The notes beneath the pieces are model-generated. The model did no database searches and had not been told where the DNA came from. It saw only the letters and a program-made list of their open reading frames with translations. DNA of 43,865 bases, taken from an archaeon (GTDB taxonomy: Archaea > Nanobdellota > Nanobdellia > Pacearchaeales > GW2011-AR1). Below, one piece after another: positions 5,727 through 29,109 of the stretch. The stretch lies in assembly GCA_043797265.1 (NCBI GenBank), contig JAZDPV010000014.1, positions 1-43,865 on the forward strand. The letters are read 5' to 3'. Both the position numbers and the translations under genes were made by a program. Within the stretch, counting starts at the first letter, position 1; each line of letters begins with the position of its first letter.

Positions 5727-6092
5727 TTATTCAGCATCTTTCTTATTCAAAAATCTAATCACTCCAAACAACATTTTCCCTATCTCGTCCAACTCTTTCA
5801 TCAAAGAATTCTTTTTCTCGACGGTAATATACCCATTTCTAAAAGCCAGCATCAATTGATTCTCAAGTTCCTTCACGCTCCCAATAGAATTATGAAGATA
5901 AGAAATATAATCCTTTCTCGTCCGCTTCCCGCATCCCTCGGCAATATTAGAACTTATACTCTCCGCCGACCTCCTCATCTGATCACCCAAAGCATAAACC
6001 TCGAACTTCGGAAACCCCATCGTAATCTTCAAAACTTCTTCATACAAATCAACCGCCCGTCGCCAAACCTTCAACTTCTTATAATCATACAT
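5727..6092 (-). CDS. Four helix bundle protein (23S rRNA IVP / Avd-like family)
   Basis: Y..L.VW, FP..E.Y.L..Q.RRSA.SI.SNIAEG.G and GS..E...QL family signature. Confidence 0.92.
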   Translation of the reverse strand: MYDYKKLKVWRRAVDLYEEVLKITMGFPKFEVYALGDQMRRSAESISSNIAEGCGKRTRKDYISYLHNSIGSVKELENQLMLAFRNGYITVEKKNSLMKELDEIGKMLFGVIRFLNKKDAE

Positions 6093-6139
6093 ATCACAAC
6101 ATCACATACAAACTATAAAAATCTAACCCAGCCCACCCC

Positions 6140-6266
6140 CGCGGACGGCAAAGCCGTCCTACTTCCAACAAAACCAAAGTTTTTGCGGACTTCCAGAAAA
6201 AATCCTTGATTTTTTCGAACTTCCAGCATCGACAAAGTCGATGCGAACTTCCAGCGAAGCGGACTA
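6140..6266. repeat. 127-bp five-hairpin array, copy 1 (includes the rpoK TAG)
   Basis: Five triloop hairpins separated by (G/T)(A/G)ACTTCCA-type linkers; 121/127 identical to 12327-12453. Confidence 0.92.
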
Positions 6267-6659
6267 CTCAGCGTCCTCAACTTTCTCTTCGCTAATCGCC
6301 TCATCATTCTCGGACTCCTCTCCAGAATCAGCCAGCTCCATCATCTCCCCGCCCTCAGAAATATCCCTCTCTTCTTCCCTCTCCGTCCGAATTTTCTCAG
6401 CATCAGAAACCACGCTCTCCTCAATCTTAATCTTCTCAATATTCTCCTCGCTCCGTGCCGGCATCGGCCTATTAACAGAAATCGGCAAGACTCCCGAATC
6501 TAATTCCTTCTCCGCAATTCTCAACGGGTCATAATTAACACCTTCCAGCTCCTCCTCATCTATATCAATCAGCAACGGCGCATCCATCGAAATCTGCAAC
6601 CCTCTCGCCCCGATTATCCGCGCTCTTTCATACTTCGAAAATTCCTGCTTCTCAACCAT
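6264..6659 (-). CDS. rpoK: RNA polymerase subunit K (Rpo6) with acidic tail
   Basis: FSKYERARIIGARGLQISMDAP and P..IA.KEL..G.LPI.V.R. Confidence 0.95.
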   Translation of the reverse strand: MVEKQEFSKYERARIIGARGLQISMDAPLLIDIDEEELEGVNYDPLRIAEKELDSGVLPISVNRPMPARSEENIEKIKIEESVVSDAEKIRTEREEERDISEGGEMMELADSGEESENDEAISEEKVEDAE

Positions 6660-7020
6660 TTACGCCAGCACACTCCCCGCTCCTCTCACGCCGTTTATAA
6701 TTCGCTATATAATAAATATCCATCGGAGTCAAACTCTCAAGAATTTCCTCCCATGACGAAACCGACATTAAAGAAAAACGATAACCATAAGAAGGATCAT
6801 TAGAAAATTTTCCGACTTCCACTAATATTTTCCTCCCTCTTTCACTAATTCCACCACCAGAAAAATCCCACGCATCATACGCCCCTAATCTAAACATAAT
6901 ATCCACAAAATCAATTCTCTTAACTCCAAGGGCCTCAAGTAGCACCTCACTATCAATCTCAACATCACCCTCTAATCCTAAAGATCCCCTTATAGCATCT
7001 CTTACTTCTTCAATATTCAT
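6652..7020 (-). CDS. Hypothetical protein with an acyl-carrier-protein-like pattern lacking the attachment serine
   Basis: L.E.LGVKRIDFVDIMFRL resembles LG.DSLD..; overlaps the rrp42 stop and the rpoK start. Confidence 0.6.
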   Translation of the reverse strand: MNIEEVRDAIRGSLGLEGDVEIDSEVLLEALGVKRIDFVDIMFRLGAYDAWDFSGGGISERGRKILVEVGKFSNDPSYGYRFSLMSVSSWEEILESLTPMDIYYIANYKRRERSGECAGVNG

Positions 7021-7841: not shown

Positions 7842-8586
7842 CTTCCTTCCTCCCAAATTTTCGATTTTCAATTTCCGACATCTCGCGAAGCGCATCAACC
7901 TGAACTTTCAAAACATCCTCGCACGCTTTCTTCCCCATCTCAATAACTTTCATCAACTCATCAGGCGAAATCTTCCCATCCAGTTGCAACAACGCAATCC
8001 CTTTATTCCTCGACGTCACAGCCAACGGAATATCAGTCGAACCCTCGCCTTCTTTAAAATCTTCCTCTTCCTTGTTCACATCAACAACCAGCGTCTTGTC
8101 AATTTTCCCGACGGCAATCGCTGAAATCATTTCTCTCATCGGAATCCCGGCATGAGCCAAAGCAATCGCCGCCGCGTTCAAACCGGCAACCCGCGTCCCA
8201 GCATCCGCTTTCGGAATCTGAATGAAGACATCAACAACAGTATTCGGGAACCCGCTCAAATCAATGACAGAACTCAACGCCCACTCAACAACTTTCGAAA
8301 TCTCCTCACTCCTTCTCGACGGCCCCGGTCTAATCCTGTCGCTCACCGAAAACGGCATCATCCCGTAATTAACTCTCAATATCCCGGTTTTCGGGTCCTG
8401 CATATGTTGTGGATGCAAAGTCCTCGGCCCACGCACGACCGCAATCGCTTTCGTCCCCCCGGTTTCGAAACTCGCCGAACCATCCGCCGACGGCACAATT
8501 CCAATCTCGGCAATCATCGGCCGAACTTCATCAACTTTCCGCCCATCAACTCGCTTTGTATACAAACTTTTTTTAGCTACCATCAT
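7834..8586 (-). CDS. rrp41: Exosome complex exonuclease Rrp41
   Basis: RVDGRK.DE.R, ADGSA, GPR, PFSV.DR.RPGPSRR and DAGTR phosphate-binding motif. Confidence 0.95.
   Translation of the reverse strand: MMVAKKSLYTKRVDGRKVDEVRPMIAEIGIVPSADGSASFETGGTKAIAVVRGPRTLHPQHMQDPKTGILRVNYGMMPFSVSDRIRPGPSRRSEEISKVVEWALSSVIDLSGFPNTVVDVFIQIPKADAGTRVAGLNAAAIALAHAGIPMREMISAIAVGKIDKTLVVDVNKEEEDFKEGEGSTDIPLAVTSRNKGIALLQLDGKISPDELMKVIEMGKKACEDVLKVQVDALREMSEIENRKFGRKEDG
7851..7892. repeat. Heptamer tandem repeat plus CGC-GAA-GCG minihairpin inside the rrp41 3' end
   Basis: ttttcga-ttttcaa-tttccga followed by cgcgaagcg; encodes ALREMSEIENRK. Confidence 0.6.
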
Positions 8587-9344
8587 TCCTCACCCTCGTC
8601 GGTGTTTTCCGCAATAATCTCAACTTCTTCCGACTTCCGACTTCCGACTTCCGACTCGCGAAGCGACAATCCCATTTCGCCAATAAACTTCTCAACTCTC
8701 TCCGTCAACCCATTCGTCGTCACATTATCAGCAATCAACTCAATAATCTTCTTCGCTGCAATCTCACTATCGGTGTTGTGTCCCGAAATCCAAATTTTCC
8801 CGTTCTGCCCGACGGTAATCTCGCACCCAGTCGCGTTCTTGATAATTTTAACCATGCTCCCCTCTTTCCCAATCACACGCGGAACCTGATTCGCCCCAAT
8901 CGAAACAATCATCCCGCCCTCGATTTTCCCAAACCCTCTCATCTTCATCGATACATCAACCCCACGCGATTTTACATCCCAAACTTTTACAATCACGCTC
9001 TCCCCAAAATCCAAAAATTCCCTCATTTCATTCTTGTTAATATATCTCGGCACTTCAGCCACCGGCAAAAACGCGTTCTGCGCCCCGCCAAAATCAATCA
9101 ACCATCCGTTAAAAGTAATATCAACAATCGTCCCAATAATTGTGTTCCCGCGCCGAGGATAATACGCCCCCGAAATCGGCACAACCCGAACGTGTTTTTC
9201 GGAAACATTCATAATCCCATAACGTCCCGCAACAACATCGGCCCCATCGCGATAAGCGCCATCGCCAGGCAGAAATTCATTTCCCGAGACTATCGTCTCT
9301 CCCGGAATTACTATTTGTCTTCTTTCCTTAACCATTTTATTCAT
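8583..9344 (-). CDS. rrp4: Exosome complex RNA-binding protein Rrp4 (S1+KH)
   Basis: IVIPGE, YYPRRG..IIG, VPRVIGKEGSM and VGQNGKIWI. Confidence 0.95.
   Translation of the reverse strand: MNKMVKERRQIVIPGETIVSGNEFLPGDGAYRDGADVVAGRYGIMNVSEKHVRVVPISGAYYPRRGNTIIGTIVDITFNGWLIDFGGAQNAFLPVAEVPRYINKNEMREFLDFGESVIVKVWDVKSRGVDVSMKMRGFGKIEGGMIVSIGANQVPRVIGKEGSMVKIIKNATGCEITVGQNGKIWISGHNTDSEIAAKKIIELIADNVTTNGLTERVEKFIGEMGLSLRESEVGSRKSEEVEIIAENTDEGEE
8627..8666. repeat. (CTTCCGA)x4 plus TCGC-GAA-GCGA hairpin inside the rrp4 C-terminus
   Basis: Perfect 7-bp tandem repeat read directly; encodes SLRESEVGSRKSE. Confidence 0.9.
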
Positions 9345-9428
9345 CGAGATAATCTATAATCAAATGACGCCCACCGGCGCCCAAATTTTTCTCGTACAAC
9401 CATCCCTAAGAAAAAAGCTTTTTAAACT

Positions 9429-10100
9429 TTACGATTTCAACTCCTCGCTCATCACACTTCCACTTGTCACAGAATTAACCCTGTCATAAAAATCCATAAT
9501 CAACCCAGCCGGCACCTCGACGACAACTTCTAAATCCCCATTATCTTTCCAGTTTTCCCTAACCATAAATTCCTTAACAACCCCATAAGCCTTCCCTGTA
9601 TGAACCGCCGGCACGACCAACTTCACCTTCTTTGTTTCAATATTAATCGGCAGCACCTTCGCCAACTGCTCAACAATCTCGCCAATCTGCGACTCAATCG
9701 ACTTATTCTTCACATTAACATGCGCCTCACCCAAAGCTTTCATAACCCTGTCCGGCGTATATGGCCGACCTTCAGGCGACACCGCATTCCTAACCAAAAA
9801 ATCAACAACCTGCTTGTACTTCGCATCATGCCCAGCCCTAATCGAATCCGTCGTCTTCACAACCTCACCACCCTTAATAATTTTCTCAGCGACCTCCATA
9901 ATATCACTCGTCCCAAAATTCTCTTCCAAGTCCTCAGCCGAAGCGTGCTCCCCCGATTTCAAATTATAAAAAACCGCATTCGTCAAAACAGCGACGCCAA
10001 CACTCCCCTCACCTTTCCGAACTCTCAACGCCTCGTCCAAATCAACCAAAATCTCAAAATGCTTCCCACCCCTTTTAATCCTCGCCGTCGTTTGCGACAT
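9429..10100 (-). CDS. Ribosome maturation factor SBDS/Sdo1
   Basis: ARIKRGGKHFEILVD, FGT.D...VA..II..GE, P.TP.R...AL.EAHV; lies between psmA and rrp4. Confidence 0.93.
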   Translation of the reverse strand: MSQTTARIKRGGKHFEILVDLDEALRVRKGEGSVGVAVLTNAVFYNLKSGEHASAEDLEENFGTSDIMEVAEKIIKGGEVVKTTDSIRAGHDAKYKQVVDFLVRNAVSPEGRPYTPDRVMKALGEAHVNVKNKSIESQIGEIVEQLAKVLPINIETKKVKLVVPAVHTGKAYGVVKEFMVRENWKDNGDLEVVVEVPAGLIMDFYDRVNSVTSGSVMSEELKS

Positions 10101-10206
10101 TTTATGAAATTAATTATCTAACTCCTTTATTTTAATTTTATGAAATGGAGTTACCATAATAAAATCAAATAGTTAACCTTTATTAAGATTTCTACAATAA
10201 AATATT

Positions 10207-10734
10207 ATGCATAAAGAAAAAGTTGCAATTTTTATCGACGGAAGCAATTTTTATCACAACACTAAAAAATTAAAAGTAGTTGACAAAATTGACTTTCAAA
10301 AATTAATCAAAGAATTAACAAAACAAAGAGAGTTAGTAAAAGTATTTTATTACAATGCATCTCTGGACCAAGGGCTAAATCCAAAAATATATTGGGAACA
10401 ACAAAAATTTTTTAACACCTTAAGAAGTATTCCAAAATTCAAAGTAATATTATGTAAACTCAGAAAAACAAAAAGAGAAGGCAAAATTATCTACGAAATG
10501 AAAGGCGACGACACCCATTTGGTAAGCGATTTTGTCGGAGAAGCTTATGAAAATTCATACGATACAGCAATTATTGTAAGTGGCGACGAAGATTTTATTT
10601 CCCCGATAAAAAGAGTAAGAAAACTTGGAAAGAAAATAGAAAACGCATATTTCAGTTCAAGCTCTTCCTACAACTTAAGAAACGCATGCGACCACTCAAT
10701 AAACCTTAATAAAATAATAAACAAAATAATATGA
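10207..10734 (+). CDS. NYN domain (LabA/DUF88, PIN-like) protein
   Basis: IFIDGSNFY, KGDD, YD.AIIVSGDEDF and L..ACD motifs; AT-rich. Confidence 0.92.
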   Translation: MHKEKVAIFIDGSNFYHNTKKLKVVDKIDFQKLIKELTKQRELVKVFYYNASLDQGLNPKIYWEQQKFFNTLRSIPKFKVILCKLRKTKREGKIIYEMKGDDTHLVSDFVGEAYENSYDTAIIVSGDEDFISPIKRVRKLGKKIENAYFSSSSSYNLRNACDHSINLNKIINKII

Positions 10735-10798
10735 ACGGCTCAGCATTGCCCGAGGACCATACTGAGCTTATATCAATATTAAGCAATTTCATAAATAT

Positions 10799-10867
10799 TT
10801 AAACCTTTCGAACCAAAATCTCAAAATGCTTCCCGCCCCTCGTCACCCTCGCCGTCGTCTGCACCAT
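10799..10867 (-). pseudogene. Remnant duplicate of the SBDS 5' end (19 codons, then RKV-stop)
   Basis: Translates MVQTTARVTRGGKHFEILV versus the intact MSQTTARIKRGGKHFEILV at 10044-10100. Confidence 0.85.
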
Positions 10868-10905
10868 AATAAATCCAAAAATCTAATCTTTATTAACCTT
10901 CCCAA

Positions 10906-10944
10906 AAAATCCGTGTCCATCCGTGTCCATCCGTGAGCAATTTC
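10906..10944. repeat. ATCCGTG-core 9/10-mer tandem repeat, copy 1
   Basis: aaatccgtgtcc-atccgtgtcc-atccgtgagcaatttc; related copy at 26531-26568. Confidence 0.8.
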
Positions 10945-10952
10945 CTAATCCT

Positions 10953-11444
10953 TTAATTCGTGAACCTCCTCCACTCTCCCTTGCTCTTATTAGTCACCAT
11001 CTTCGCCATCACCAACTCATCATAAATCCCGTCAAGCAAATCAATCCCCTTCGCCTCTTCCAAACCAACCCACCTAAACTCATCACATTCCTCCTCTTGT
11101 AAAACAACTTCACCAGCCTCCCAATCCGCAACGCAAGAAATAACCAAACTCGGCGCCCCATCCTCATGCACCGTCGCCAAACTCGTCACATACTCAATAT
11201 TCCGAATATCAATCCCAACCTCTTCCTTAACTTCCCGTCTCAAAACTTTCTCCAAAACATTATACCAATAATCCTTCGTGTCCTTCGGCAACTCAACATA
11301 ATCATTTGTTTCAAGTTTTCCACCCGGCACCGTCCACATATTCGGAAACCGCCTCTTCGTCGCCGACCGCTTCGTTATCAAAAACTTTCCATCCTTAACA
11401 ACAATCGCCGTCACCACAACCTCATGCAAAAATTTATTTTCCAT
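10953..11444 (-). CDS. NUDIX hydrolase (start reassigned to ATG 11444)
   Basis: W.VPGGK.E ... REVKEEVG Nudix box with an internal insertion; TATA about 22 nt upstream. Confidence 0.88.
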   Translation of the reverse strand: MENKFLHEVVVTAIVVKDGKFLITKRSATKRRFPNMWTVPGGKLETNDYVELPKDTKDYWYNVLEKVLRREVKEEVGIDIRNIEYVTSLATVHEDGAPSLVISCVADWEAGEVVLQEEECDEFRWVGLEEAKGIDLLDGIYDELVMAKMVTNKSKGEWRRFTN

Positions 11445-11481
11445 AACATACAAAAATAACCAATCTTTAAATAATTATCCA

Positions 11482-11520
11482 CAAGCACGGACAAACCGCG
11501 CAACATTCACTACCAACTAC
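11482..11520 (-). repeat. 39-bp post-stop hairpin element, copy 2 (abuts the psmA TAA)
   Basis: 34/39 identical to 4440-4478. Confidence 0.8.
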
Positions 11521-12216
11521 TTACTGAAATTTGGCTCCGACAAATTTCTCAATCCCCCTCTCGCTCAAAACACCGACGTCAAACCTATCAATATTAAAAT
11601 CATCCTTCTGCACTTCCTTGAAAATATCCAAAGCCAACTTAACTCCTTCTTTCGAAGTCATTCCATCTATATATTTTTCCCTCAACATTTTCTTAATTTT
11701 CTCATCATCCTCCCCAATCGCATTCGCCTTGTATCTCAAATAATTCCCGGTAATATCAGTCGTATACAAAGTCGGCTTCCCATCAACCCCGGCAAACATC
11801 ATCGAAGCACCAAACGGTCTCGCCCCGCCATACTGAGTAAATTGTTGCTTCAAATCCGCGACATCCCGAACAATCGACTCGACACTCGGCGCCGAATCAT
11901 AAGTTACCCAATGTTGCTGCGCCAAAATCCGCGCCTTCTCAATCAAAACCCTCGCATCCGAAGTAATCCCAGCAAAAACAACCATGATATGCCCATCGAC
12001 CTCGTTAATCCGATTTGCCGACTCTTCAATCAACAACTTGTCTCTCTGCCGCCTGTCCGCAACAATCACAACACTATCCCTGCAAACAATTCCAATCGAC
12101 GCCGAGCCCAATCTAATTGTCTTCTCCGCATATTCTACCTGAAGTATGTGCCCGTCAGGCGCGAACATCGTCGCCGCCCTGTCATACCCCATTTGCTGAT
12201 GCTGAATATCTTCCAT
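11521..12216 (-). CDS. psmA: Proteasome subunit alpha
   Basis: GYDRA.TMF.PDG...QVEYA, G..SDAR.L and TQYGG.RPFG. Confidence 0.96.
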   Translation of the reverse strand: MEDIQHQQMGYDRAATMFAPDGHILQVEYAEKTIRLGSASIGIVCRDSVVIVADRRQRDKLLIEESANRINEVDGHIMVVFAGITSDARVLIEKARILAQQHWVTYDSAPSVESIVRDVADLKQQFTQYGGARPFGASMMFAGVDGKPTLYTTDITGNYLRYKANAIGEDDEKIKKMLREKYIDGMTSKEGVKLALDIFKEVQKDDFNIDRFDVGVLSERGIEKFVGAKFQ

Positions 12217-12326
12217 TTTCGTTTATCGTAAATAGTATAAAGGTTATACAACCTTCTTCCATCCCAAAACCAAAAAATCTCCCTTAATAAGTTTTATTGT
12301 TCCACATTTAAATCACCCCCAAATTT

Positions 12327-12453
12327 CGCGAACAACAAAGCCGTCCTACTTCCAGCAAAACCAAAGGTTTTGCGGACTTCCAGAAAAAATCCTTGATTTT
12401 TTCGAACTTCCAGCGTCGACAAAGTCGATGCGAACTTCCAGCGAAGCGGACTA
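12327..12453. repeat. 127-bp five-hairpin array, copy 2 (includes the pop5 TAG)
   Basis: Same length and orientation as 6140-6266, with 6 substitutions. Confidence 0.92.
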
Positions 12454-12726
12454 TTTGAGTCCCTTAATCGTCCCGCTAACTTTCTCAATTCTAATCCCCG
12501 CAAAAGCCAACGCCGCCCGAACATCCTCCAACGATTTCACCAAACAACTTCCCACGATTTTACCATCAATTTTCTCAACAAACATATAAGCAGATTTCCC
12601 AAAACCCAAAATACCAATATATTCCAAAATCGCTTTCTCAACTTTCTCATTCGTCGCCTCAACCAAAAAATATCTTCTCTTGTCCCTCGCCGACGGCCTA
12701 AGTTTTAATCTTTTTCCTTTCACCAT
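12451..12726 (-). CDS. RNase P protein component Rpp14/Pop5
   Basis: LRPS.RDKRRY, G.LG and VSGTIK motifs; upstream of psmA as in the exosome superoperon. Confidence 0.82.
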   Translation of the reverse strand: MVKGKRLKLRPSARDKRRYFLVEATNEKVEKAILEYIGILGFGKSAYMFVEKIDGKIVGSCLVKSLEDVRAALAFAGIRIEKVSGTIKGLK

Positions 12727-17388: not shown

Positions 17389-17389
17389 A

Positions 17390-17944
17390 ATGGAAATATA
17401 CCAGCCAGCCGAAGACTCTTACTTTTTCGTAGACTTCCTAAAAAAATATTTCAAAAACCAACAACCCAACACCCACAACCCAACACCCACATTTTTATCT
17501 TCGATAAAAATGTTAGACATGGGCACCGGCTCTGGCATTCTCTCTGAAACAGCATCACAATTCATAAACAAAAAAAACATAATTCCCGTCGACATAAATC
17601 CAAAATCAGTAAAACTTCTCAAACAAAAAGGGTTCAACGCAGTCAAGTCAAACCTCTTTCAAAACGTCAAAAGTAAATTCAACCTAATAATTTTCAACGC
17701 TCCTTATCTCCCGCTCGACAAACGCGAACCAAAATCATCCCAAGTCGCAACAACTGGCGGCAAAAACGGCGACGAAATATCAATCAAATTTTTAAAGCAA
17801 GCGAAAAATTATCTAACCAAAAACGGCAAAATTTTCCTCCTAATTTCGACTCTGACTCCAATGGGCAAAATAAAAAAATTCAACCCAAAAATTGTCGCCA
17901 GAAAAAAAATATTCATGGAAGAATTACTAATTTTAGAATTATAA
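17390..17944 (+). CDS. HemK/PrmC-related (release factor glutamine) methyltransferase (start reassigned to 17390)
   Basis: IYQPAEDS, LDMGTGSG, FNAPY (NPPY variant) and GG..G. Confidence 0.88.
   Translation: MEIYQPAEDSYFFVDFLKKYFKNQQPNTHNPTPTFLSSIKMLDMGTGSGILSETASQFINKKNIIPVDINPKSVKLLKQKGFNAVKSNLFQNVKSKFNLIIFNAPYLPLDKREPKSSQVATTGGKNGDEISIKFLKQAKNYLTKNGKIFLLISTLTPMGKIKKFNPKIVARKKIFMEELLILEL
17455..17489. repeat. Heptamer tandem repeat inside the HemK-like gene
   Basis: aaaccaa-caaccca-acaccca-caaccca-acaccca; encodes NQQPNTHNPTP. Confidence 0.8.
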
Positions 17945-21230: not shown

Positions 21231-21264
21231 CAAACCTTAAAAACCAATTTTATCCAATATATAG

Positions 21265-21519: not shown

Positions 21520-21525
21520 TTCCCA

Positions 21526-21602
21526 TCTTAAGCGCAAGCGTTCTTAATTCTTAAGCAAAGCGTTCTTAAGCCAAAGACGTTCTATAATTGCGCAGCAATT
21601 AT
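21526..21602. repeat. TTCTTAA units interleaved with minihairpins between convergent genes
   Basis: Four tcttaa units with gcgcaagcg / gcaaagc / gccaaagac inserts; terminal ATAATTGC-GCA-GCAATTAT overlaps the DUF4389 stop. Confidence 0.75.
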
Positions 21603-21986: not shown

Positions 21987-22120
21987 GCAAATTAAAATTT
22001 TAGGCGCAGGTTGTCCGTTGCGAAGCAATGGACGGCGCCGTCGAGCAATTCGCTTTCTTGAATACAAATACCAACTATCTTTCGAGAATGCAAATTGCGA
22101 GAGAAAAAATTTTAATTTGC
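21987..22120. mobile_element. MITE-like structured element with 15-bp perfect terminal inverted repeats enclosing two hairpins
   Basis: GCAAATTAAAATTTT (21987-22001) / AAAATTTTAATTTGC (22106-22120); inner GTCCGTTGC-GAA-GCAATGGAC hairpin and a 62-nt hairpin homologous to the 16S insertion. Confidence 0.6.
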
Positions 22121-22220
22121 ATTAAATCGTGAACGAAGTTCACCATCCAGAAAAAGTTGGTAAGAAAACTTAGTGTTCTTACAATATAAATCCTTTTAAC
22201 TCAAATAAACTTATAACCAA

Positions 22221-22976
22221 ATGACAGAACAAAAAATCTCCGCCGGCTCTTACGAACTAAATACATTCCTCCAAGGCGGCTACGAAACCGACATCATCAC
22301 GACAATCTACGGCCCCGGCGGCTCCGGCAAATCAAACCTCTGCATCATCGTCGCAGTATCCCAAGCCAAAAAGGGAAACAAAATAATTTTCATCGACACC
22401 GAAGGCGGTTTCTCGACGGAAAGATTCAAGCAAATCCACCAAGGCACGAAAGAAGAAATCGAAGCAGACCTCCAAAACATCCTGCTCCTAAAACCAACTT
22501 CATTCGCCGAACAAGAAAAAGCCTTCGACCAAATGTTAAAGTATGTAAAAAAAGAAAACATCTCGCTAATAATAATTGACAGCATCGCAATGCTCTACCG
22601 ACTCGAACTCGGCGGCGCAATCACATTAAAAGACAACGAAAAAATATCAGAAGTAAACCGCAAACTCGCAAACCAACTCCGAGCCCTGAACGAAATTGCT
22701 CGCAAACAAAACATCCCAATCATCGTCACAAACCAAGTCTACTCCCAATTCGAACCCGCTACCCGCTACCCACTATCCGCTACCGACGGAACGCTCGAGC
22801 GTTCCGTCTCTATGGTCGGCGGCGACCTTCTAAAATATTGGTCCAAATGTCTAATCGAACTCAAAGGCTACAACAACAAACGAAAACTCATCCTAAAAAA
22901 ACACCGCTCACTCCCAGTCAAAGAACTTGCTTTTGAAATCACTCGAACCGGCATCAAGAAAAGAGGATTATTTTAA
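22221..22976 (+). CDS. radB: DNA repair and recombination protein RadB
   Basis: GGYE...IT.IYGP.GSGKS, IDTEGGFS.ER, IIDS, TNQVY and C-terminal KHR; no RadA N-terminal domain. Confidence 0.92.
   Translation: MTEQKISAGSYELNTFLQGGYETDIITTIYGPGGSGKSNLCIIVAVSQAKKGNKIIFIDTEGGFSTERFKQIHQGTKEEIEADLQNILLLKPTSFAEQEKAFDQMLKYVKKENISLIIIDSIAMLYRLELGGAITLKDNEKISEVNRKLANQLRALNEIARKQNIPIIVTNQVYSQFEPATRYPLSATDGTLERSVSMVGGDLLKYWSKCLIELKGYNNKRKLILKKHRSLPVKELAFEITRTGIKKRGLF
22754..22781. repeat. Heptamer tandem repeat inside radB (L2 loop region)
   Basis: acccgct-acccgct-acccact-atccgct; encodes PATRYPLSA. Confidence 0.85.
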
Positions 22977-23015
22977 CCACAATAATCCTTAAATAGAATA
23001 AAAACACAAAACAAT

Positions 23016-23306
23016 ATGAACAAATTAGATTTAAAACGAGCCGAAAAAATAAGAATAGAAGAACTAAAATCAAATCATCCAAATAATTCAATTTATATAG
23101 GATACAACTATTACGAAAAGGAAAAAGAAGACAAAGAATTCAATTATAAAGCCTATCAAATGATGACTCCAGAACAAATACTTTCCAGCGAAGATTATTT
23201 TTGCAAAAAACACACGGCAGAATTTGAAAATTTTATAAAGCAATTAGATGAATTCGAAAAACTCTCAAGAAAGTCAAAGATTGTTTGTTCATCACGGGCA
23301 GCCTAA
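23016..23306 (+). CDS. Hypothetical protein
   Basis: 96-aa AT-rich ORF with its own TATA about 25 nt upstream; convergent with topA. Confidence 0.6.
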   Translation: MNKLDLKRAEKIRIEELKSNHPNNSIYIGYNYYEKEKEDKEFNYKAYQMMTPEQILSSEDYFCKKHTAEFENFIKQLDEFEKLSRKSKIVCSSRAA

Positions 23307-25519
23307 TTTTTTTTAATCTTCCCTCTCTCAACAACTTTCCCATCCTCGCCAACCTTAATCTCGCCGCTCGCAATCTTCGCCTTAAACTCCTCTTTCTTTT
23401 TAGTCAACTCCTCATTCGACGGACATGCCGGATTAAAACAAAATTTCCACGGCGCTCGCCCTTTCTGAAAACTCATCATCAACGGGAACCCGCACTCCGC
23501 GCACATCTCCAACTCTTCTGGGTCCCTAATATCTGATATCTGATTTCTGACACCTTGATGAAGCCGTGCCGGCTTCATCATTCCCCTCGGCGGCAGCGAA
23601 TAAATCGTCTTGCAATTCGGATAAGCATCGCACGAAACAAAATACCTCCCAAACTTTTTCCCATACATCACCCGCAATTTTCCCTTGTGGCAAACCGGGC
23701 ACTCGCTCATCGTGTTCGCCTCCTTCTCTTGCTCCCAAACAACCGCGTTCGCGTCAGCCAAACTTTTTCCCATTTTCTCCAAATTCGCATTCATCCCCTC
23801 GGCAATCTTCGTCACAACTTTCTTCGCTTCGTCCAAAACTTTCTTCTCCATTTTTTCCAGCTCTATTTTCTGATTTCTATTTTCTATTTTCTCAAAATTA
23901 AAATTTTCAATAAATTCTAATTTTGTTGTCATCTCCGCCGTCAGCCCCTCATCCAAAATAATCGGCGAATATTTCTCAAGCGTTTCCTCCATCCTCATCC
24001 CCAGCTCCGTGACCTCGATGCTCTTGTTTCGCACATATCCACGAGAATACAACGTCTCAATAATATCGGCCCGAGTCGCCTTCGTCCCAAGCCCGCGCTT
24101 CTCCAACTCCTTAACCAACGACGCAGCAGAATATCTTCTCGGCGGTTTCGTCTCTTTCTCCTCGGTCCTAATTTCCAAAACATCAACATCCCCGTCAATA
24201 GTCGGCACCCTGAACTCTTTCAACAACGACGGATAAACATTCATCCACCCTCTCTCTTTAATCACAACACCCCTCGCCCCAAAATCCAACCCATTCACAA
24301 CAACTTTGATATTTTTATTCTCAGTCCTCGCAGATTCACAAAAACAAGAAATAAACCTTCTCACAATCAAGTCATAAACTTTCTTGTCCCTCTCAGAAAT
24401 CTTGCCCTCGCCCGTCGGATAAATCGCCGGATGCGCCGGATCAACCTTCGCCCCCTCCGTCGGCTTCTCATTGACAGCATACTTGACCGCCGCCGTATAT
24501 TTCTTCAATCTTTTCAAAATCTTGTCATAACCAATCGACGCATCATACTTCTGGCTCGAAGTTCTCGGATAAGAAATTGCCCCGGCCAAATACAAACTCT
24601 GCGCCACCTTCAACGTCTGCGACGGAGTAAACCCGCAATTCTTGTACGCCTCGGTCTGTAGCGTCGTCAAATCAAAAGGCACCGGCGCCTTAATTTCCTC
24701 GTCCTTAATCGTCGTCGACGCAACCCCACTCTTCCCTTTCAAGTGCCTGAACTTCAACAACTCGCTCTCGTTAAAAATATCTTTCGGATATTTCACTTCA
24801 ACCTTCTGCCCTTTGATATCCCTCACATTCAAAAATACATCCCAATACGGCTCGCTCTTAAAATTTTGTATCTCCTTCTCCCTGTCCGCAACAATTTTCA
24901 GCGCCGGTCCCTGCACCCGACCAATCGACAAAATCCTAAACATCCCCGTCGACGAAAGCGCCTTCATCAGTCCCCGCGACAAATTAATCCCGTAAAACCA
25001 GTCAATATAATGCCTCGTCTCACCCGCAATCGCCGCACCCCAATTCAGCGTCGGCAACAAATTTTCAAACGATTTATCCAGCGCCTCTTTTGTCAAAAGC
25101 GAAAACTTCATCCTCTTCGCGTCCTTCTTCCCGCAGACAAACCTCACGACATTCCATCCAATCACCTCGCCCTCAACATCAAAGTCCGTCGCGACAATAA
25201 ACTCGTCCGCCCCCTTCGCCAACTTTTTCAAAACATCCAGATATTTTTTCGTGAAAGCCCCGCTCTTTTTGTTATAAGCCGCCCTCCACTCAACATCAAA
25301 ATTAGGAAACGCCCCCCTCTTGTCAACTTGCTGAATTCCAAACAAATGCCCGACCGCGCACCCGACAATATACTTCCGCCCATCCCGGCTAAATTCATAA
25401 TACGAAACCTTGTTCTTGTTAGTGATTTTCTCATCTGTCGCCCCACTCAACGCCGCCGCTATCTTCTCCGCCGCCGCCGGCTTCTCAGTAATTATCAGCG
25501 TCGCATTTTTCTTGACCAT
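23303..25519 (-). CDS. topA: DNA topoisomerase I (type IA) with C-terminal Zn ribbons (start reassigned to 25519)
   Basis: IITEKP, GHL, ATD.D.EGE.IG, SIGRVQ.PAL, ISYPRT, AHPAI.PT, GLGT.ATR and CxxC ribbons. Confidence 0.96.
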   Translation of the reverse strand: MVKKNATLIITEKPAAAEKIAAALSGATDEKITNKNKVSYYEFSRDGRKYIVGCAVGHLFGIQQVDKRGAFPNFDVEWRAAYNKKSGAFTKKYLDVLKKLAKGADEFIVATDFDVEGEVIGWNVVRFVCGKKDAKRMKFSLLTKEALDKSFENLLPTLNWGAAIAGETRHYIDWFYGINLSRGLMKALSSTGMFRILSIGRVQGPALKIVADREKEIQNFKSEPYWDVFLNVRDIKGQKVEVKYPKDIFNESELLKFRHLKGKSGVASTTIKDEEIKAPVPFDLTTLQTEAYKNCGFTPSQTLKVAQSLYLAGAISYPRTSSQKYDASIGYDKILKRLKKYTAAVKYAVNEKPTEGAKVDPAHPAIYPTGEGKISERDKKVYDLIVRRFISCFCESARTENKNIKVVVNGLDFGARGVVIKERGWMNVYPSLLKEFRVPTIDGDVDVLEIRTEEKETKPPRRYSAASLVKELEKRGLGTKATRADIIETLYSRGYVRNKSIEVTELGMRMEETLEKYSPIILDEGLTAEMTTKLEFIENFNFEKIENRNQKIELEKMEKKVLDEAKKVVTKIAEGMNANLEKMGKSLADANAVVWEQEKEANTMSECPVCHKGKLRVMYGKKFGRYFVSCDAYPNCKTIYSLPPRGMMKPARLHQGVRNQISDIRDPEELEMCAECGFPLMMSFQKGRAPWKFCFNPACPSNEELTKKKEEFKAKIASGEIKVGEDGKVVERGKIKKN
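23523..23580. repeat. Heptamer repeat plus 11-bp perfect triloop hairpin inside topA
   Basis: tatctga-tatctga-tttctga then TGATGAAGCCG-tgc-CGGCTTCATCA. Confidence 0.85.
23862..23889. repeat. Second heptamer repeat inside topA
   Basis: tctattt-tctgatt-tctattt-tctattt; encodes KIENRNQKIE. Confidence 0.75.
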
Positions 25520-25577
25520 CAAAACACCAAAACAACACCCTATAATAATATTACGCTCATCCAATCCGCCAAGCCCC

Positions 25578-25667
25578 CAGCGAAGCTGAACTTTTCCAGT
25601 CGCAAAGCGACTGAACTTTTCCATGCGAAGCATGAACTTTTCCGCAAACAAAGTTTGTGAACCTCTC
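25578..25667. repeat. Four-hairpin array with a constant AACTTTTC linker
   Basis: CAGC-GAA-GCTG, CAGTCGC-AAA-GCGACTG, CATGC-GAA-GCATG and CGCAAAC-AAA-GTTTGTG, followed by AACTTTTC x3 and AACCTCTC. Confidence 0.9.
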
Positions 25668-25675
25668 AAGCAAAA

Positions 25676-26269
25676 TCATACTTCTATGATTTTGCCCCTC
25701 CGCCCAACCTGCACAACTCTTGTCTTTCCAATCCTGTCCTCAATCCCCTCGCCCTCATGGATATGCGCCGCAATCAGCAAATCCGGCTCAAACTCATCAA
25801 CCGCCCTTCGAACAATCTCGTCGCCAGCAATCCCCGAAAACTCCGCCGCAGTCCCAGCCGCGTGCAAATGCGAAACCAAAATCCGCTTCTTCGGCTTCAT
25901 CATCTCAAAATTCCGCCTCATCTCAACCAAATCATTTTCATCCAAGCTCAACTTCCAATTTGGGTTCCCAATCCCCGCAATCCCGACGTCCCCATAAGTC
26001 ACATAATAATTATGAATACTCTTCGCCTTCTTCTTCAACATCTCGTGCTCCTCGTCAAAATCACAATTCCCCGGCACAAACACAACTTTCTGCCCCGCTT
26101 CAGCGAACGCCCCTAAAATGTCCTCATCTCCCTCGGCATACCCATAAATGTCCCCAGCCAAAACAACTAAATCCACTTTATTCTTCCGCGCCTTCACCGA
26201 CAACTTTCGCGCAATATCCAAACTCCCATGCAAATCCGCCGCAGCAAGTATCCTAAGTTTCTTCTTCAT
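25676..26269 (-). CDS. Calcineurin-like metallophosphoesterase (Icc-related)
   Basis: ADLHG, LAGD, PGNCD, SH and HIHE. Confidence 0.9.
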   Translation of the reverse strand: MKKKLRILAAADLHGSLDIARKLSVKARKNKVDLVVLAGDIYGYAEGDEDILGAFAEAGQKVVFVPGNCDFDEEHEMLKKKAKSIHNYYVTYGDVGIAGIGNPNWKLSLDENDLVEMRRNFEMMKPKKRILVSHLHAAGTAAEFSGIAGDEIVRRAVDEFEPDLLIAAHIHEGEGIEDRIGKTRVVQVGRRGKIIEV

Positions 26270-26289
26270 ATAGCAACTACATAAAACAA

Positions 26290-26484
26290 TTATAAAAATC
26301 TTTCCAACAATCTTTCCCTCGCTCCACTCTCGTTACCAACAACCCCTTGCATAAAATCTCCCAAAAGCCGATTCAAATCTTTTAACCTATAATATACATG
26401 CTCTTCATAAAATTCCCTCATATCCAAAACCCATCTCGCCGGACACGCCACCGCAACATAATCTTTCAACTCTCCATTAAACAT
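26290..26484 (-). CDS. Small hypothetical protein
   Basis: 64-aa ATG ORF filling the gap before the divergent valS promoter; no recognisable motif. Confidence 0.45.
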   Translation of the reverse strand: MFNGELKDYVAVACPARWVLDMREFYEEHVYYRLKDLNRLLGDFMQGVVGNESGARERLLERFL

Positions 26485-26530
26485 AACAAAACGAAAATTC
26501 CAATCTTTTTATATTTTATGTCCACAAATG

Positions 26531-26568
26531 AAAATCCGTGCCCATCTGTGAAATCCGTGAGCAATTTC
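26531..26568. repeat. ATCCGTG-core 9/10-mer tandem repeat, copy 2
   Basis: aaaatccgtgccc-atctgtgaa-atccgtgagcaatttc. Confidence 0.8.
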
Positions 26569-26582
26569 TCCAATACCAAATC

Positions 26583-26590
26583 TTTTAAAT
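26583..26590 (+). promoter_or_regulatory. TATA box for a leaderless valS transcript
   Basis: TTTTAAAT 21-28 nt upstream of ATG 26611; similar spacing at rnj, mre11, rpoL, radB and 30232. Confidence 0.55.
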
Positions 26591-26610
26591 CTCTTCCCAT
26601 TCCATTATCT

Positions 26611-28986
26611 ATGAACTTCAAAGACATAAAAAATTGGAATGTCGAAATAGAAAACGAAATAACAAACAATTGGAAAAACCAAGAACCTTTCACATTCAAT
26701 CCAAAAACAAAAAAGAAAATCTATTCAATTGACACACCGCCACCATATGTCAACACCCCAATCCACATGGGCCACGCCGTCACCTACTGCTTCATGGATT
26801 TTTTCGCGCGCTACCGAAGAATGAAAGGATTCGAAGTTCTCTTCCCGCTCGGCCTCGACCGAAACGGACTCCCAATCGAAATGGCAACCGAAAAAAAATT
26901 CAACGCATCCCCGTTCAAAGTCGGCCGAAAAAAATTCGTAGAATTATGTGAGCAACTTTTATCCGAAGCATCAGCCGAATCAATCGACTCATTCGCAAAA
27001 CTCGGCATCTCGTTCTCTTCCTACAACACCGACGACAAAATCGGAGCAATCTATAACACCGATTCACCAGAATACCGAACCCTGACCCAGACAACATTCG
27101 CCAAACTCTTCAAAAAAGGATTAATCTACGAAGACACAAGAATAAATAATTGGGACCCAAAACTCCAGACAACAATCGCCGACTCTGAAATCGAATACCA
27201 AGAAATCCCGTCAACATTCAACAACATCAAATGGAAAGTCAAGGAAACCGGCGAAGAAATAATAATCGGCACGACACGTCCAGAATTAATCGCAACCTGC
27301 GGAATGGTTATCTTCAATCCCGACGACAAAAGATACAAGCATCTCGACGGCAAAACTGCAATCTCGCCAATCTTCGAAAAAGAAATCCCAATCAAGCCGC
27401 ACCCGCTCGCACAAATCGATAAGGGCACAGGACTCGCGATGATGTGTTCAGTAGGAGACCTGTCAGACATTCAATTCTTTAGGGAAATGAAACTAACCCC
27501 ACAAATCGCAATCGGGCAGGATGGCAAAATGAACGAAAAAGCTGGAATTTTAAAAGGACTAAAAGTAAAAGAAGCACGAGAAAAAATAATAGGACTAATC
27601 AAAGAAAAAAAACTGCTCACAAAACAAGAAAAAATAATTCACCGAACTCCAATCTCCGAACGCTCGGGCGCCGAAATCGAATTCATCGAGATGCCGGAAT
27701 TTTATTTGAAACAAATAGACCTAAAAAAAGATATTCGAAAAATAATCAAGCAAATAAATTTTTATCCAAAAAGCTCAAAAAAAATTCTCGACGACTGGAT
27801 AGATTCAATATCAATCGATTGGCCAATTTCCCGACGACGATACTACGCAACACCAGTCCCGTTATGGTATTCAAAAAATTTAATAGCAATCGCACCCGAA
27901 GGAACATATACCGAACCATGGAAACAAAACCCGCCAAAAGAATCTGAAGTAATCGACACTAAGACAAAAAAAATATTAGGAACAATCGCCGACTTCCCAG
28001 AAAATAAATGGACAGGCGAAGAAAGAGTTCTCGACACATGGTTCGACTCTTCAATCTCAGAACTCAATATGCTCAAATACAAATCCGACGACGCATTCTT
28101 CAGAAAATCATACCCAGCGACGCTGAGACCACAAGGAAAAGAAATCGTCAGAACATGGCTTTACTACACAATCCTTCGCGGCTTCCTCGAAACAAACAAG
28201 CCATGTTTCAAAGACGTTTGGATTCACCAGCACATCCTCGACGCCAACGGACGAAAAATGTCAAAATCACTCGGCAACATAATCGACCCTCAGCAAATCC
28301 TGAAAGAAGACGGAGCCGAAGCCCTAAGGTTATGGTCAGCAACAGAAGGCGACCTATCAAAAGGAGATTTCATCTGCTCCCGCGAAAAAATCAAAGCCGA
28401 AAAAAAATCCCTGAATAAATTGTTAAACATTTCAAAATTCGTAATGCTATTCGACAAACCAAAAACAAAACCGACGCTGACATCGACAGACAAACTTTTC
28501 ATCGACCACATAGAAAACCTGACATCAACCGCCGACAAATTCTACGAAACTTACAACTTCAACTACCCGGCCCAGCAACTAAGAAATTTTCTATGGGAAA
28601 CTTTCGCGTCCCACTACATCGAGCTCGTAAAAAACCGCGCCTACAACGAAAACAAAAATTTCACCGACGACGAATCCGCCTCCGCAAAATACACGCTCCA
28701 CTTCATCCTCGAAAGATTACTAATTCTCCTTCACCCAATCATCCCGCAAATCACGACGCTAATCGCAAAACAAAAAAACATCAACCTCCTAAAATCCGAA
28801 TGGCCGAAATCACCTACCCCCTACCCCCTACCATCTACCATCTACAACCTAATCAACTTCAATTCCCAAATCTGGAAAATAAAAAAAGAAAAAGGAATTT
28901 CTTTAAAGGGACCCATCAGCGAAATCAAAATCCCAAAAGAACTAATACCATTCGAAAAAGATTTGAAAGCCTGTCACAACATTTAA
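26611..28986 (+). CDS. valS: Valine--tRNA ligase (start reassigned to 26611)
   Basis: IDTPPPY, HMGH, GTTRPE, KGTG, DW.ISR.RY, VLDTWFDSS, LRPQG.EI.RTW and KMSKS. Confidence 0.95.
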   Translation: MNFKDIKNWNVEIENEITNNWKNQEPFTFNPKTKKKIYSIDTPPPYVNTPIHMGHAVTYCFMDFFARYRRMKGFEVLFPLGLDRNGLPIEMATEKKFNASPFKVGRKKFVELCEQLLSEASAESIDSFAKLGISFSSYNTDDKIGAIYNTDSPEYRTLTQTTFAKLFKKGLIYEDTRINNWDPKLQTTIADSEIEYQEIPSTFNNIKWKVKETGEEIIIGTTRPELIATCGMVIFNPDDKRYKHLDGKTAISPIFEKEIPIKPHPLAQIDKGTGLAMMCSVGDLSDIQFFREMKLTPQIAIGQDGKMNEKAGILKGLKVKEAREKIIGLIKEKKLLTKQEKIIHRTPISERSGAEIEFIEMPEFYLKQIDLKKDIRKIIKQINFYPKSSKKILDDWIDSISIDWPISRRRYYATPVPLWYSKNLIAIAPEGTYTEPWKQNPPKESEVIDTKTKKILGTIADFPENKWTGEERVLDTWFDSSISELNMLKYKSDDAFFRKSYPATLRPQGKEIVRTWLYYTILRGFLETNKPCFKDVWIHQHILDANGRKMSKSLGNIIDPQQILKEDGAEALRLWSATEGDLSKGDFICSREKIKAEKKSLNKLLNISKFVMLFDKPKTKPTLTSTDKLFIDHIENLTSTADKFYETYNFNYPAQQLRNFLWETFASHYIELVKNRAYNENKNFTDDESASAKYTLHFILERLLILLHPIIPQITTLIAKQKNINLLKSEWPKSPTPYPLPSTIYNLINFNSQIWKIKKEKGISLKGPISEIKIPKELIPFEKDLKACHNI
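28811..28852. repeat. Six-unit heptamer repeat inside valS
   Basis: cacctac-cccctac-cccctac-catctac-catctac-aacctaa; encodes SPTPYPLPSTIYNL. Confidence 0.88.
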
Positions 28987-29064
28987 TACCCAAACTTTAA
29001 AACTCCCACTTCTCTAATATTAACATGACAACAAATAAACAAATAGCAAAGCCGAACAAGTTAT

Positions 29065-29109
29065 GCCAACAGCCAATGGCTAACAACTAATAGCTGCGAC
29101 GAAGCCGCA
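29065..29109. repeat. Heptamer repeat plus GAA-loop hairpin directly upstream of aRF1
   Basis: gccaaca-gccaatg-gctaaca-actaata then tgcgac-GAA-gccgca. Confidence 0.7.

Follow-up and report, generated by a model that had tools for sequence, protein, structure and literature searches.

To our knowledge, tandem heptanucleotide repeats have been catalogued for decades (in cyanobacteria, Beggiatoaceae, Bacteroidetes and Geobacter) with no origin or binding partner identified, and few small proteins of unassigned function are as common as those of PF05635, their only characterized relative being Avd, a factor of diversity-generating retroelements (DGRs). Here, we report that the two occur together. 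The stretch of DNA under study (hereafter the window) is the entire contig C14, 43 865 nt long, of an archaeal assembly of 625 kb and 18 contigs (GCA_043797265.1; Pacearchaeales). It carries a PF05635 four-helix-bundle (4HB) gene between rpoK and eno, an array of small hairpins directly upstream of that gene, and further hairpin arrays and tandem-heptamer tracts between and within other genes. The observation of gene and repeats is confirmed as real. We are highly confident that the 4HB cassette and the arrays are linked, and the best-supported reading of their association is that the 4HB protein is a structure-recognizing factor tied to the repeats.

The STRR sequences of cyanobacteria are tandem-heptanucleotide repeats. 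Geobacter metallireducens carries a four-fold GGGACCG element in 49 copies, both genic and intergenic, as well as five MTYCTGA repeats at each of 15 sites (PMC2700814; this and the other papers given here by accession or preprint number are cited from parts of their text). TAACTGA repeats, found in marine Beggiatoaceae, cyanobacteria and some Bacteroidetes, lie mostly just before start codons; MacGregor (2015) proposed them as post-transcriptional binding sites and suggested that an unidentified TAACTGA repeat-binding protein could itself be a mobile element (PMC4679880). Heptanucleotides are also the commonest long simple repeat in many prokaryotes, which has been attributed to polymerase slippage (Mrazek 2007, cited in PMC4679880). 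The archaeal tracts share with the Geobacter H4 and TAACTGA elements their four to five tandem heptamers, their multicopy occurrence in genic and intergenic DNA, in many cases shortly ahead of a start codon, an xCTGAxx motif and the lack of an assigned function. They differ in that they have no single consensus: here, the heptamer is locus-specific and has a hairpin next to it, polarity goes with the DNA strand, tracts at orthologous sites have been rewritten, and there is clustering of tracts at PF05635 genes. Tandem-heptamer elements as such were already known from Geobacter and Beggiatoaceae, and what is new, in that we did not find it in print, is the link to a 4HB gene. The literature searched, with the supplements of PMC2700814 and PMC4679880 outside its scope, held no link between PF05635 or other 4HB genes and heptanucleotide repeats. 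The main texts of those two papers, as far as available, contain no mention of S23 or IVS proteins, and their supplementary lists of repeat-adjacent genes may bear on novelty.

From the side of the protein, the nearest described element is the intervening sequence (IVS) of 23S rRNA in Leptospira and Coxiella, which encodes an S23p/PF05635 protein and is regarded as selfish (PMC4990558). PF05635 genes have also been noted as insertions inside cas operons (PMC3936711), and PF05635 is the commonest DGR-associated family (PMC10053308). In the Bordetella DGR, an 11 bp RNA stem–loop is touched by each of the five protomers of Avd (bioRxiv 10.1101/2023.10.23.563531). Like an IVS, the archaeal element is a small insertion with a PF05635 ORF, and the ORFs of its bacterial relatives, where arrays stand on both sides, are bounded by inverted repeats in 30 of 33 cases; unlike an IVS, it lies between rpoK and eno rather than in a 23S rRNA helix, its flanks are tandem heptamers or hairpin mosaics (upstream only in this genome), and many arrays have no ORF at all. 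With the DGR protein bAvd (4DWL, 8UBE) it shares a four-helix fold, Avd being a pentamer that clamps stem–loop RNA, but it scores below the equivalog cut-off, has no adjoining reverse transcriptase (RT) or template repeat (TR), and occurs in two relatives, G019 and G023, in which no RT was found. The DGR analogy is weak.

Two further element classes invite comparison. Rickettsia palindromic elements are selfish, in-frame sequence families of 100–150 bp, and the archaeal elements resemble them as short palindrome-bearing insertions tolerated in frame in conserved protein genes. There is no 100–150 bp consensus here, however: flanks, heptamers and hairpins vary, only the architecture is conserved, and the insert is partly copied from local sequence. 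Repetitive extragenic palindromes and the bacterial interspersed mosaic elements built from them (REP/BIME), which occur with REP-associated tyrosine transposases (RAYTs), are intergenic mosaics of small hairpins. Small-hairpin mosaics, linkers and strand bias are common to both, but no RAYT flanked by these hairpins is present and the archaeal elements also lie inside genes.

The original prediction, made from the window sequence, held that the 4HB gene interrupts the rpoK–eno pair, and comparison with relatives bears this out. The comparison set comprised 41 genomes, this one and 40 relatives. The gene has eno (4479–5678) and rpoK (6264–6659) as its neighbours, and in G019, G015 and G024 the same two genes are separated by 4–16 nt (BLAST coordinates; adjacent in three of five relatives). 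The G023 spacer, at 217 nt, lacks the 4HB gene, and G006 is not syntenic there. Because rpoK and eno are contiguous in three relatives and the G023 spacer is without the gene, we regard the 4HB gene and its upstream array as an insertion. The five hairpins predicted directly upstream are present at 6143–6260: GGACGGC-AAA-GCCGTCC, an imperfect CAAAACC-AAA hairpin, GAAAAAATC-CTT-GATTTTTTC, GCATCGAC-AAA-GTCGATGC and GCGAAGC. The array recurs at 12336–12453, between psmA and a 91 aa gene without a Pfam match (12451–12726) and with no adjoining 4HB gene; in G023 the psmA spacer array stands in the same place with another linker (GTTCTACAAG). The stretch between the rpoK–eno array and the 4HB start codon reads as a likely promoter and leader, and TTTATAA-like boxes also come after the arrays at the C5 and C12 copies of the gene.

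The 4HB protein scores 124.6 bits against PF05635 (cut-off 33.8) and 117.9 bits against TIGR02436 (cut-off 24). Its AlphaFold2 (AF2) model has four helices at a predicted local distance difference test score (pLDDT) of 95.3, with template-modelling (TM) scores of 0.91 to 2GSC, 0.76 to 2RLD and 0.78 to bAvd 4DWL, followed by DGR ribonucleoprotein structures. The predicted kinship with Avd thus stands as one of fold, but not of closer family: the protein reaches 38.2 bits against the DGR Avd equivalog NF033474 (cut-off 80) and 28.3 bits against Pfam bAvd (cut-off 40), and no copy lies beside a DGR. The structures 2GSC and 2RLD each contain five chains, and by analogy the 4HB protein is probably a pentamer. 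It carries the GxxRxxxSxxxNxxE motif (conserved as R..S...N..E(G)) described for PF05635/TIGR02436 proteins (PMC3936711); R41, N49, E52 and G53 do not vary across 14 aligned sequences, and at least 90 % of these have S45. Its nearest named relative is from a ‘Candidatus Woesearchaeota archaeon’ metagenome-assembled genome (MAG). The genome encodes five copies, on C5, C12, C14, C16 and C18, all on the G-rich strand.

The interpretation offered in the original prediction is partly supported. The link between gene and repeats, which the original prediction rested on one adjacency, now draws on many. A hairpin or heptamer array lies directly upstream of all five 4HB genes of this genome, between the preceding stop codon and a TATA-like box, and an array just upstream was seen by eye at seven of ten 4HB loci of relatives. 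Under a definition that was fixed once the data had been inspected (within 200 nt upstream, either a heptamer array or two or more minihairpins or strong hairpins), such elements precede four of five 4HB genes, compared with 52/642 genes and 39/190 intergenic spacers of at least 100 nt; hand-calculated binomial P values are ~2e-4 against genes and 0.01 against spacers. Array and gene also appear to have travelled together. The nearest 4HB orthologue, at locus L046 (75 % amino acid and 78 % nucleotide identity), has the same CTGGAAGTTCG-linker array upstream, and its neighbouring genes differ, matching other contigs of this genome.

The association extends across phyla. A query with the 4HB protein gave 80 loci, mostly from Bacteroidota, with others from Acidobacteriota, Gemmatimonadaceae, Phycisphaerae, Thermoplasmata and other DPANN lineages. 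Among the tandem repeats of these loci, period 7 is dominant (196/467). Of 164 arrays, 97 fall no more than 130 nt from the end of a 4HB ORF, a region that makes up ~5 % of the sequence. The anticipated flank enrichment was found here too, arrays being present in 87/172 spacers that flank a 4HB gene and in 24/95 other spacers of at least 60 nt (odds ratio 3.0). Arrays stand on both sides of 33 of 89 4HB ORFs, and in 30 of those 33 they form an inverted pair, the downstream heptamer being the reverse complement of the upstream one with at most two mismatches. The arrays stand at a median of 12.5 nt ahead of the start codon and 4 nt beyond the stop, and array length has its mode at 30–35 nt, as in the archaeal genome. 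At one Thermoplasmata MAG locus, L085 (3359–3391 and 3574–3606), AAACTGA/CAACTGA repeats lie directly downstream of the 4HB gene and the inverse AGTTGTT/AGTTGTC upstream; AAACTGA/CAACTGA is one base off the Beggiatoaceae TAACTGA repeat.

Among the 41 genomes, 4HB matches number nine in G019, six in G023, five in the present genome and three in G015, and 0–1 in the others. In a sample of 47–124 kb from each of 18 genomes together with the whole of this one, heptamer arrays per 100 kb number 8.8, 13.0, 10.6 and 3.0 in the same four genomes and 0–2.0 in the other 15, and periods 5, 6 and 8–10 do not track 4HB copy number. The expectation that period-7 repeats and triloop hairpins would both follow the copy number of the gene held for the former (rho 0.51, which is not independent evidence because the sampled genomes are kin), but the GNA-triloop bias tracks GC skew rather than 4HB count. 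Genome G005 has a skew of 0.34 and minihairpins biased 22:6 between strands, with no 4HB gene and 1.0 heptamer arrays per 100 kb; minihairpin bias and heptamer arrays are therefore separable phenomena. In G006, an assembly gap of Ns falls within a long heptamer array adjoining its 4HB gene.

The shared repeat vocabulary, predicted at more than a dozen sites, is borne out within 5727–29109 (Table 1) and takes two forms. The first is a tract of ~31–33 nt made of ~4.5 copies of a locus-specific heptamer, in most cases with a perfect hairpin next to it on the C-rich strand. Defined as period-7 arrays in Tandem Repeats Finder (TRF; at least 3.5 copies, at least 80 % match), 67 such tracts occur in the genome, mostly of four to five copies and most of them 30–33 nt; a stricter detector found 37, and none in a locally shuffled genome. 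The heptamer varies by locus, with more than ten types (for example CACTTCC, CGCCCGT, CCTGACG, TTCTGAC and TGCGACC). The lengths of perfect period-7 runs have two modes, the second at 29–33 nt, and a cap at 33 (a single run reaches 39), and no other period between 4 and 12 has such a length mode or cap. A perfect hairpin with a stem of 4–14 bp lies directly 3′ of the tract on the C-rich strand in 31/67 cases and directly 5′ in 11/67, against a random baseline of 16.7 % of 2000 positions; in relatives the corresponding counts are 8 and 2 in G023 (13 arrays) and 9 and 1 in G019 (11 arrays). This polarity tracks the DNA strand and not gene direction (19:2 and 5:1 in genes of the two orientations). 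As regards the statement that 7 bp repeats often end at a GCGAAGC hairpin, by eye ten of the 67 tracts terminate at (c)GCGAAGC(g), among them 7857–7892 and 8627–8666 in the window; others end at different hairpins, as at 17458–17513, 22754–22808 and 23529–23580.

Many of these tracts lie in genes that are otherwise conserved. Of the 67, 25 are mid-gene, 16 near gene ends, eight at ORF edges and 18 intergenic, so that 41 lie inside genes. Core-gene hosts in the genome include PheRS, PolB, the PolD large subunit, Cbf5/TruB (twice), a class I aldolase and a GTPase; in the window they are Rrp4, Rrp41/42, a methyltransferase, a Rad51/RadB-like ATPase and a type IA topoisomerase. ORFs stay open through the tracts, which are therefore predicted to encode peptides of ~11 aa with a seven-residue period. 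Three other readings of the tracts were considered and rejected: G-quadruplexes or i-motifs formed by four repeats (by eye, many heptamers have no GG or CC), bulge–helix–bulge introns or inteins (the hairpins are perfect and unbulged and the ORFs open), and CRISPR-like arrays (no unique units of spacer size).

The second form is a mosaic of GAA- or AAA-triloop hairpins with a constant heptamer-sized linker. The minihairpin d(GCGAAGC) is a DNA structure of exceptional stability, and GCGAAGC occurs 112 times on the C-rich strand of the genome and 35 times on the G-rich strand, compared with zero-order expectations of 11 and 14, an approximately tenfold over-representation on the C-rich strand. 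In the window, GAACTTCC is found seven times where 1.47 are expected, a count reached in 0 of 100 shuffles. Triloop hairpins (stem at least 3; loops C-GAA-G, C-AAA-G or C-GCA-G) lie mostly on the plus strand, as had been proposed, at 23 vs 8 in the window and 271 vs 96 genome-wide; the bias is 129:33 in spacers, 68:11 in genes on the C-rich strand and weaker, at 74:52, in genes on the G-rich strand. Counts of perfect hairpins with 4–6 bp stems were near the shuffled background (7159 vs 6121; 918 vs 638), and the measures adopted instead were stems of at least 7, the GC[GA]AAGC motif and TRF arrays. The 25578–25695 mosaic terminates in a ccgccaagccccca motif that is also present at the C5 4HB copy. 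The 14-mer CCAGCGAAGCGGAC has 13 exact copies in this genome and one each in three of the 40 relatives, which marks its sequence family as species-specific.

These strand biases are set in a genome of extreme asymmetry. Whole-contig |GC skew| is 0.29–0.53 on all 18 contigs, with matching AT skew, and holds across genes of either strand; the relatives range from 0.05 to 0.43. The plus strand of the window is the C- and A-rich one. Our own strand-aware caller places 437 of 656 genes on the G-rich strand. In the literature searched we found no paper on GC skew in these archaea.

Table 1. Repeat elements and associated genes; positions without a contig label refer to the window (C14)
Feature	Position	Strand	Remarks
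4HB gene, 121 aa, PF05635/TIGR02436, Avd fold	5727–6092	minus	HMM scores and AF2 model; one of five copies in the genome
Candidate promoter/leader of 4HB gene	6093–6142	minus	TTTTTATAG box ~40 nt before ATG; read from sequence
Five-hairpin mosaic array, G(G/A)ACTTCCA linkers	6143–6263	plus	Begins at the rpoK TAG stop, which lies within the last linker
Degenerate ATTTTCG-type tract ending cGCGAAGCg	7857–7892	plus	Within overlap of Rrp41 tail and Rrp42 start
CTTCCGA x4.3 (perfect) plus tCGCGAAGCGa	8627–8666	plus	In frame, Rrp4 C-terminal tail
Second copy of five-hairpin array, first hairpin truncated	12336–12453	plus	97.5 % identity over 118 nt
CCAACAC-type heptamers x4.4 plus 9–11 bp hairpin	17458–17513	plus	In frame near methyltransferase N-terminus (17342–17944, plus)
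Intergenic hairpin array, GTTCTTAA linkers	21530–21602	plus	Hairpins GCGCAAGCG, GCAAAGC, ... AATTGCGCAGCAATT
ACCCGCT x4.4 plus hairpin GACGGAACGCTCGAGCGTTCCGTC	22754–22808	plus	In frame, Rad51/RadB-like gene (22221–22976, plus)
ATATCTG x3.1 plus 9 bp hairpin	23529–23580	plus	Inside topoisomerase gene (23303–25669, minus)
TCTATTT x4.4	23862–23892	plus	In frame, topoisomerase gene 23303–25669
Hairpin mosaic, TGAACTTTTCCA linkers	25578–25695	plus	GCGAAGC, GTCGCAAAGCGAC, GCGAAGC, CAAACAAAGTTTG, plus 9 bp hairpin
CCTACCC/CTACCAT tract	28813–28851	plus	Near 3′ end of gene 26398–28986
GxxExxY genes (TIGR04256/PF13366, PD-(D/E)XK nuclease family), seven in all, one frameshifted	C13:619–957, C12:28312–28647, C2:42957–43295, C11:889–1227		
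GxxExxY genes, continued	C16:19173–19505, C16:22453–22785, C2:45804–46126		

Sister genomes show these elements being gained and rewritten in place. Where a sister lacks an element, the net gain in this genome is +27, +15, +30 or +36 nt, all multiples of three; the 8627–8666 element, absent in G023, G024 and G015, accounts for +30 nt, and the 17458–17513 element, absent in G024, for +36 nt. Two of the hairpins combine a new 5′ arm with a 3′ arm homologous to what the sister carries natively, and each therefore looks like a reverse copy of neighbouring sequence. At sites shared between genomes (four, with the Rrp41/42 junction as a fifth), total length is equal and the heptamer different every time: CGACTTG vs CGAACTC, CCGAACT vs CCGACAC and CTGAAAC vs CGACCCA. 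At the Rrp41/42 site, G023 has CTGTCGT x4 plus cacgaagcg, and at one shared site both hairpin arms are altered together. The pattern is one of concerted rewriting and not of one old slippage event. The same array as at 8627–8666 occurs in other contexts in at least 12 places in G023, and also in two metagenome runs. Of the sequencing runs listed as containing this genome none was of RNA; sparse contig cover from three DNA runs (shares 0.13, 0.08 and 0.08) showed no indel or joint at arrays and is uninformative on expression or strain variation.

We propose a model in which tracts and hairpins would arise in the DNA itself, where templated re-copying occurs at a hairpin barrier on one of the replication strands. 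The final 7 nt would be re-copied until a limit of ~32 nt is reached, each new hairpin arm would be a fold-back copy of adjoining sequence, and only harmless products would survive. The 4HB protein, a probable pentamer, would recognize both hairpin and heptamer structures, in its own cassette as well as in solo arrays, and would promote or stabilize array formation. As the protein has no catalytic domain, we propose that the chemistry would fall to host replication enzymes or to co-distributed GxxExxY nucleases. On this model the window would hold one selfish cassette, the 4HB gene with its 5′ repeat array, and about a dozen solo members of the same vocabulary on which the 4HB protein acts in trans; we hold this picture tentatively, as possible and not quite probable. 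The same grade, somewhat short of an even call, applies to the role in trans at solo arrays, to which the association between gene and arrays points.

The search of the genome for RT, HUH/RAYT and GxxExxY genes suggested in the original prediction yielded all three kinds of candidate enzyme: one DGR RT, one Y1_Tnp and seven GxxExxY genes. The GxxExxY family is a lead for the missing enzyme. Its genes are multicopy in the same four genomes as the 4HB genes, and heptamer arrays flank 0/7 of those in this genome, so that the heptamer-array link is specific to 4HB genes. Each GxxExxY gene is followed instead by ~10 nt repeats of the CACGGATT/CGCGGATT type, two being flanked on both sides by direct repeats, and gene and repeats look like a second kind of small cassette. 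As regards the RT, none was found in G019, G023 or G015 (assemblies 72–83 % complete) or in G005 (72–87 % across the four), and G019 and G023 are as repeat-rich as this genome; accordingly, an RT does not seem to be needed for the arrays. Neither the DGR nor the IS200-type transposase is needed to explain them.

Several points weigh against a protein acting in trans on the repeats. With many of the Bacteroidota loci being orthologous, the effective number of loci is below 80, and arrays in 25 % of neighbouring spacers mean that they are not exclusive to 4HB flanks. The four heptamer-rich genomes belong to one genus and may be one clade, in which case one event could underlie the correlation; the strongest GC skew and multicopy GxxExxY genes are likewise common to them, and the GxxExxY genes confound the correlation with 4HB copy number. 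In this genome the arrays lie upstream only, not as inverted pairs around 4HB genes, and intergenic tracts have no hairpin polarity (7 vs 8). Paralogue-specific sequence recognition is strained by ~60 solo arrays and more than ten heptamer types for five 4HB genes, and the match between a pentamer and 4.5 repeats is for now numerology. The gene calls, from our own caller, are crude and uncurated, and array and flank thresholds were picked after inspection of the data.

The main rival explanation dispenses with the protein at solo arrays: slippage and fold-back at hairpin barriers, under extreme strand asymmetry and reduced repair, would make the arrays as a by-product, and the 4HB gene would be a hitch-hiker whose own arrays are cis elements (such as an IVS-like mRNA stem) or which lands in array-rich spacers. 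The skew on all 18 contigs, a polarity that tracks the DNA strand and not gene direction, and the correlation of skew with heptamer density (rho 0.50) all suit this account; fold-back arms and concerted rewriting are consistent with it, slippage is the published attribution for prokaryotic heptanucleotides (Mrazek 2007, via part of PMC4679880), and elements lie in 20 % of spacers of at least 100 nt without any 4HB gene. We nevertheless consider it unlikely. Simple slippage does not predict a hard cap at ~33 nt, nor does a by-product predict inverted arrays hugging 4HB ORFs in low-skew bacteria or an array and gene that move together, as at L046. G005, moreover, has the skew and the biased minihairpins, yet it has the low array density, and no 4HB gene, noted above.

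An improbable alternative places the arrays at the RNA level, as terminator, insulator or translational-operator sites, with the 4HB protein as an RNA-binding regulator of its own and other mRNAs. Such a role has been proposed for TAACTGA repeats, as post-transcriptional binding sites (MacGregor 2015; PMC4679880, seen in part), and for the Geobacter heptanucleotide elements, and Avd binds RNA stem–loops. The placement of the arrays is also suggestive, since they begin at stop codons and end just before TATA-like boxes in the archaeon and, in bacteria, sit so close to start and stop that inverted pairs would close an mRNA stem. However, 25 of the 67 tracts are mid-gene, in conserved proteins encoded on one strand or the other, polarity goes with the DNA strand, the heptamer is not conserved at orthologous sites, and the minimal GCUUCGC stem is just 2–3 bp as RNA.

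It is very improbable that the five 4HB genes are dispersed avd genes serving the one DGR of this genome, with the GNA-loop hairpins as its target-recognition hairpins. The DGR is complete (C3:8819–10928), with a target gene bearing a C-terminal variable repeat (VR), a TR and a 339 aa RT (C3:9909–10928, 63.5 bits); 15/15 TR/VR mismatches are at TR adenines, no avd or 4HB gene stands beside it, and the 4HB fold matches bAvd. Its target protein has no Pfam match. The shortfall against the Avd equivalog cut-off, the failure to find an RT in G019, G023 and G015 with their nine, six and three 4HB genes (in assemblies of 72–83 % completeness), the lack of any TR-like donor for the arrays and heptamer tracts without a DGR counterpart speak against it, and none of the five 4HB copies adjoins the DGR. 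Movement of REP/BIME-like elements in trans by an HUH Y1 (IS200/RAYT-type) transposase through single-stranded DNA at the fork is hardly credible: there is one Y1_Tnp gene (IS200-type TnpA, C18:86986–87297, 81.3 bits), the arrays are strand-polarized hairpin mosaics and a CT|CG junction recurs by eye at the hairpin foot, but the flanking hairpins of the transposase are unlike the arrays, the gene lies in an AT-rich, integrase-bearing island, heptamers and hairpins vary by locus and so form no sequence family, and the hairpin arm comes from local sequence and not from unit transposition. The island itself (C18:84853–91081), which is probably an integrated element, holds a tyrosine recombinase, the N-terminally short TnpA and several winged-helix-like small ORFs.

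A structure-recognizing 4HB protein would give a long-unexplained class of repeats a candidate protein partner, and both the repeats and the protein become testable through each other. In its broadest and quite unlikely form, the proposal would make PF05635 4HB proteins the missing trans-acting factor behind prokaryotic tandem heptanucleotides (STRR, TAACTGA, Geobacter H4 and the archaeal tracts). Minimal self-propagating elements of a new class would thereby be defined: an oligomeric structure-binder without polymerase or nuclease domain would use host replication to write ~32 nt heptamer tracts, together with fold-back hairpins, both around the gene that encodes it and at secondary sites, essential genes among them. 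The archaeal case shows with unusual clarity DNA that is written and then rewritten in place, with in-frame insertions tolerated in polymerases, a tRNA synthetase, a topoisomerase and exosome subunits. Its extreme strand polarity is relevant to the mechanics of DPANN replication.

Contig ends in this genome fall within heptamer arrays or within 100 nt repeats holding them (C15:1–28, C6:8443–8574 and C13:8415–8446), and because contigs break within such repeats, heptamer elements are under-counted in the assembly. A longer repeated element of ~60–90 nt occurs in at least 12 places (for example C12:30290, C12:67655, C5:10117, C5:12174 and C2:26913), with a partial copy near window position 35228. 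It has the GAA-triloop hairpins GGCGGC-GAA-GCCGCC and GAGAACC-GAA-GGTTCTC with AAAGATAT between them, and ~70 nt further on a C-rich tract ending ctcGCGAAGCg.

At Rfam gathering thresholds, the sole match in the window is the 5′ part of a small-subunit (SSU) rRNA at 1–399; the arrays match no curated RNA family, and ARAGORN found no tRNA in the window. The intergenic stretch at 21990–22150 (aggcgcaggttgtccg ... ggacggcgcc ... gtgaacgaagttcac), which has no Rfam match at the gathering threshold, resembles the G023 rpoK–eno spacer and may be a small structured RNA. A segment of low GC content (0.335) at 10100–11546 holds an NYN-domain gene (10207–10734) and a Nudix-like gene (10953–11453, by motif only); G023 is without it at that site and has 1.36 kb between rrp4 and the next gene instead. 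Lastly, an open-ended minus-strand ORF of 2899 aa (35165–43864) runs past the end of the contig.

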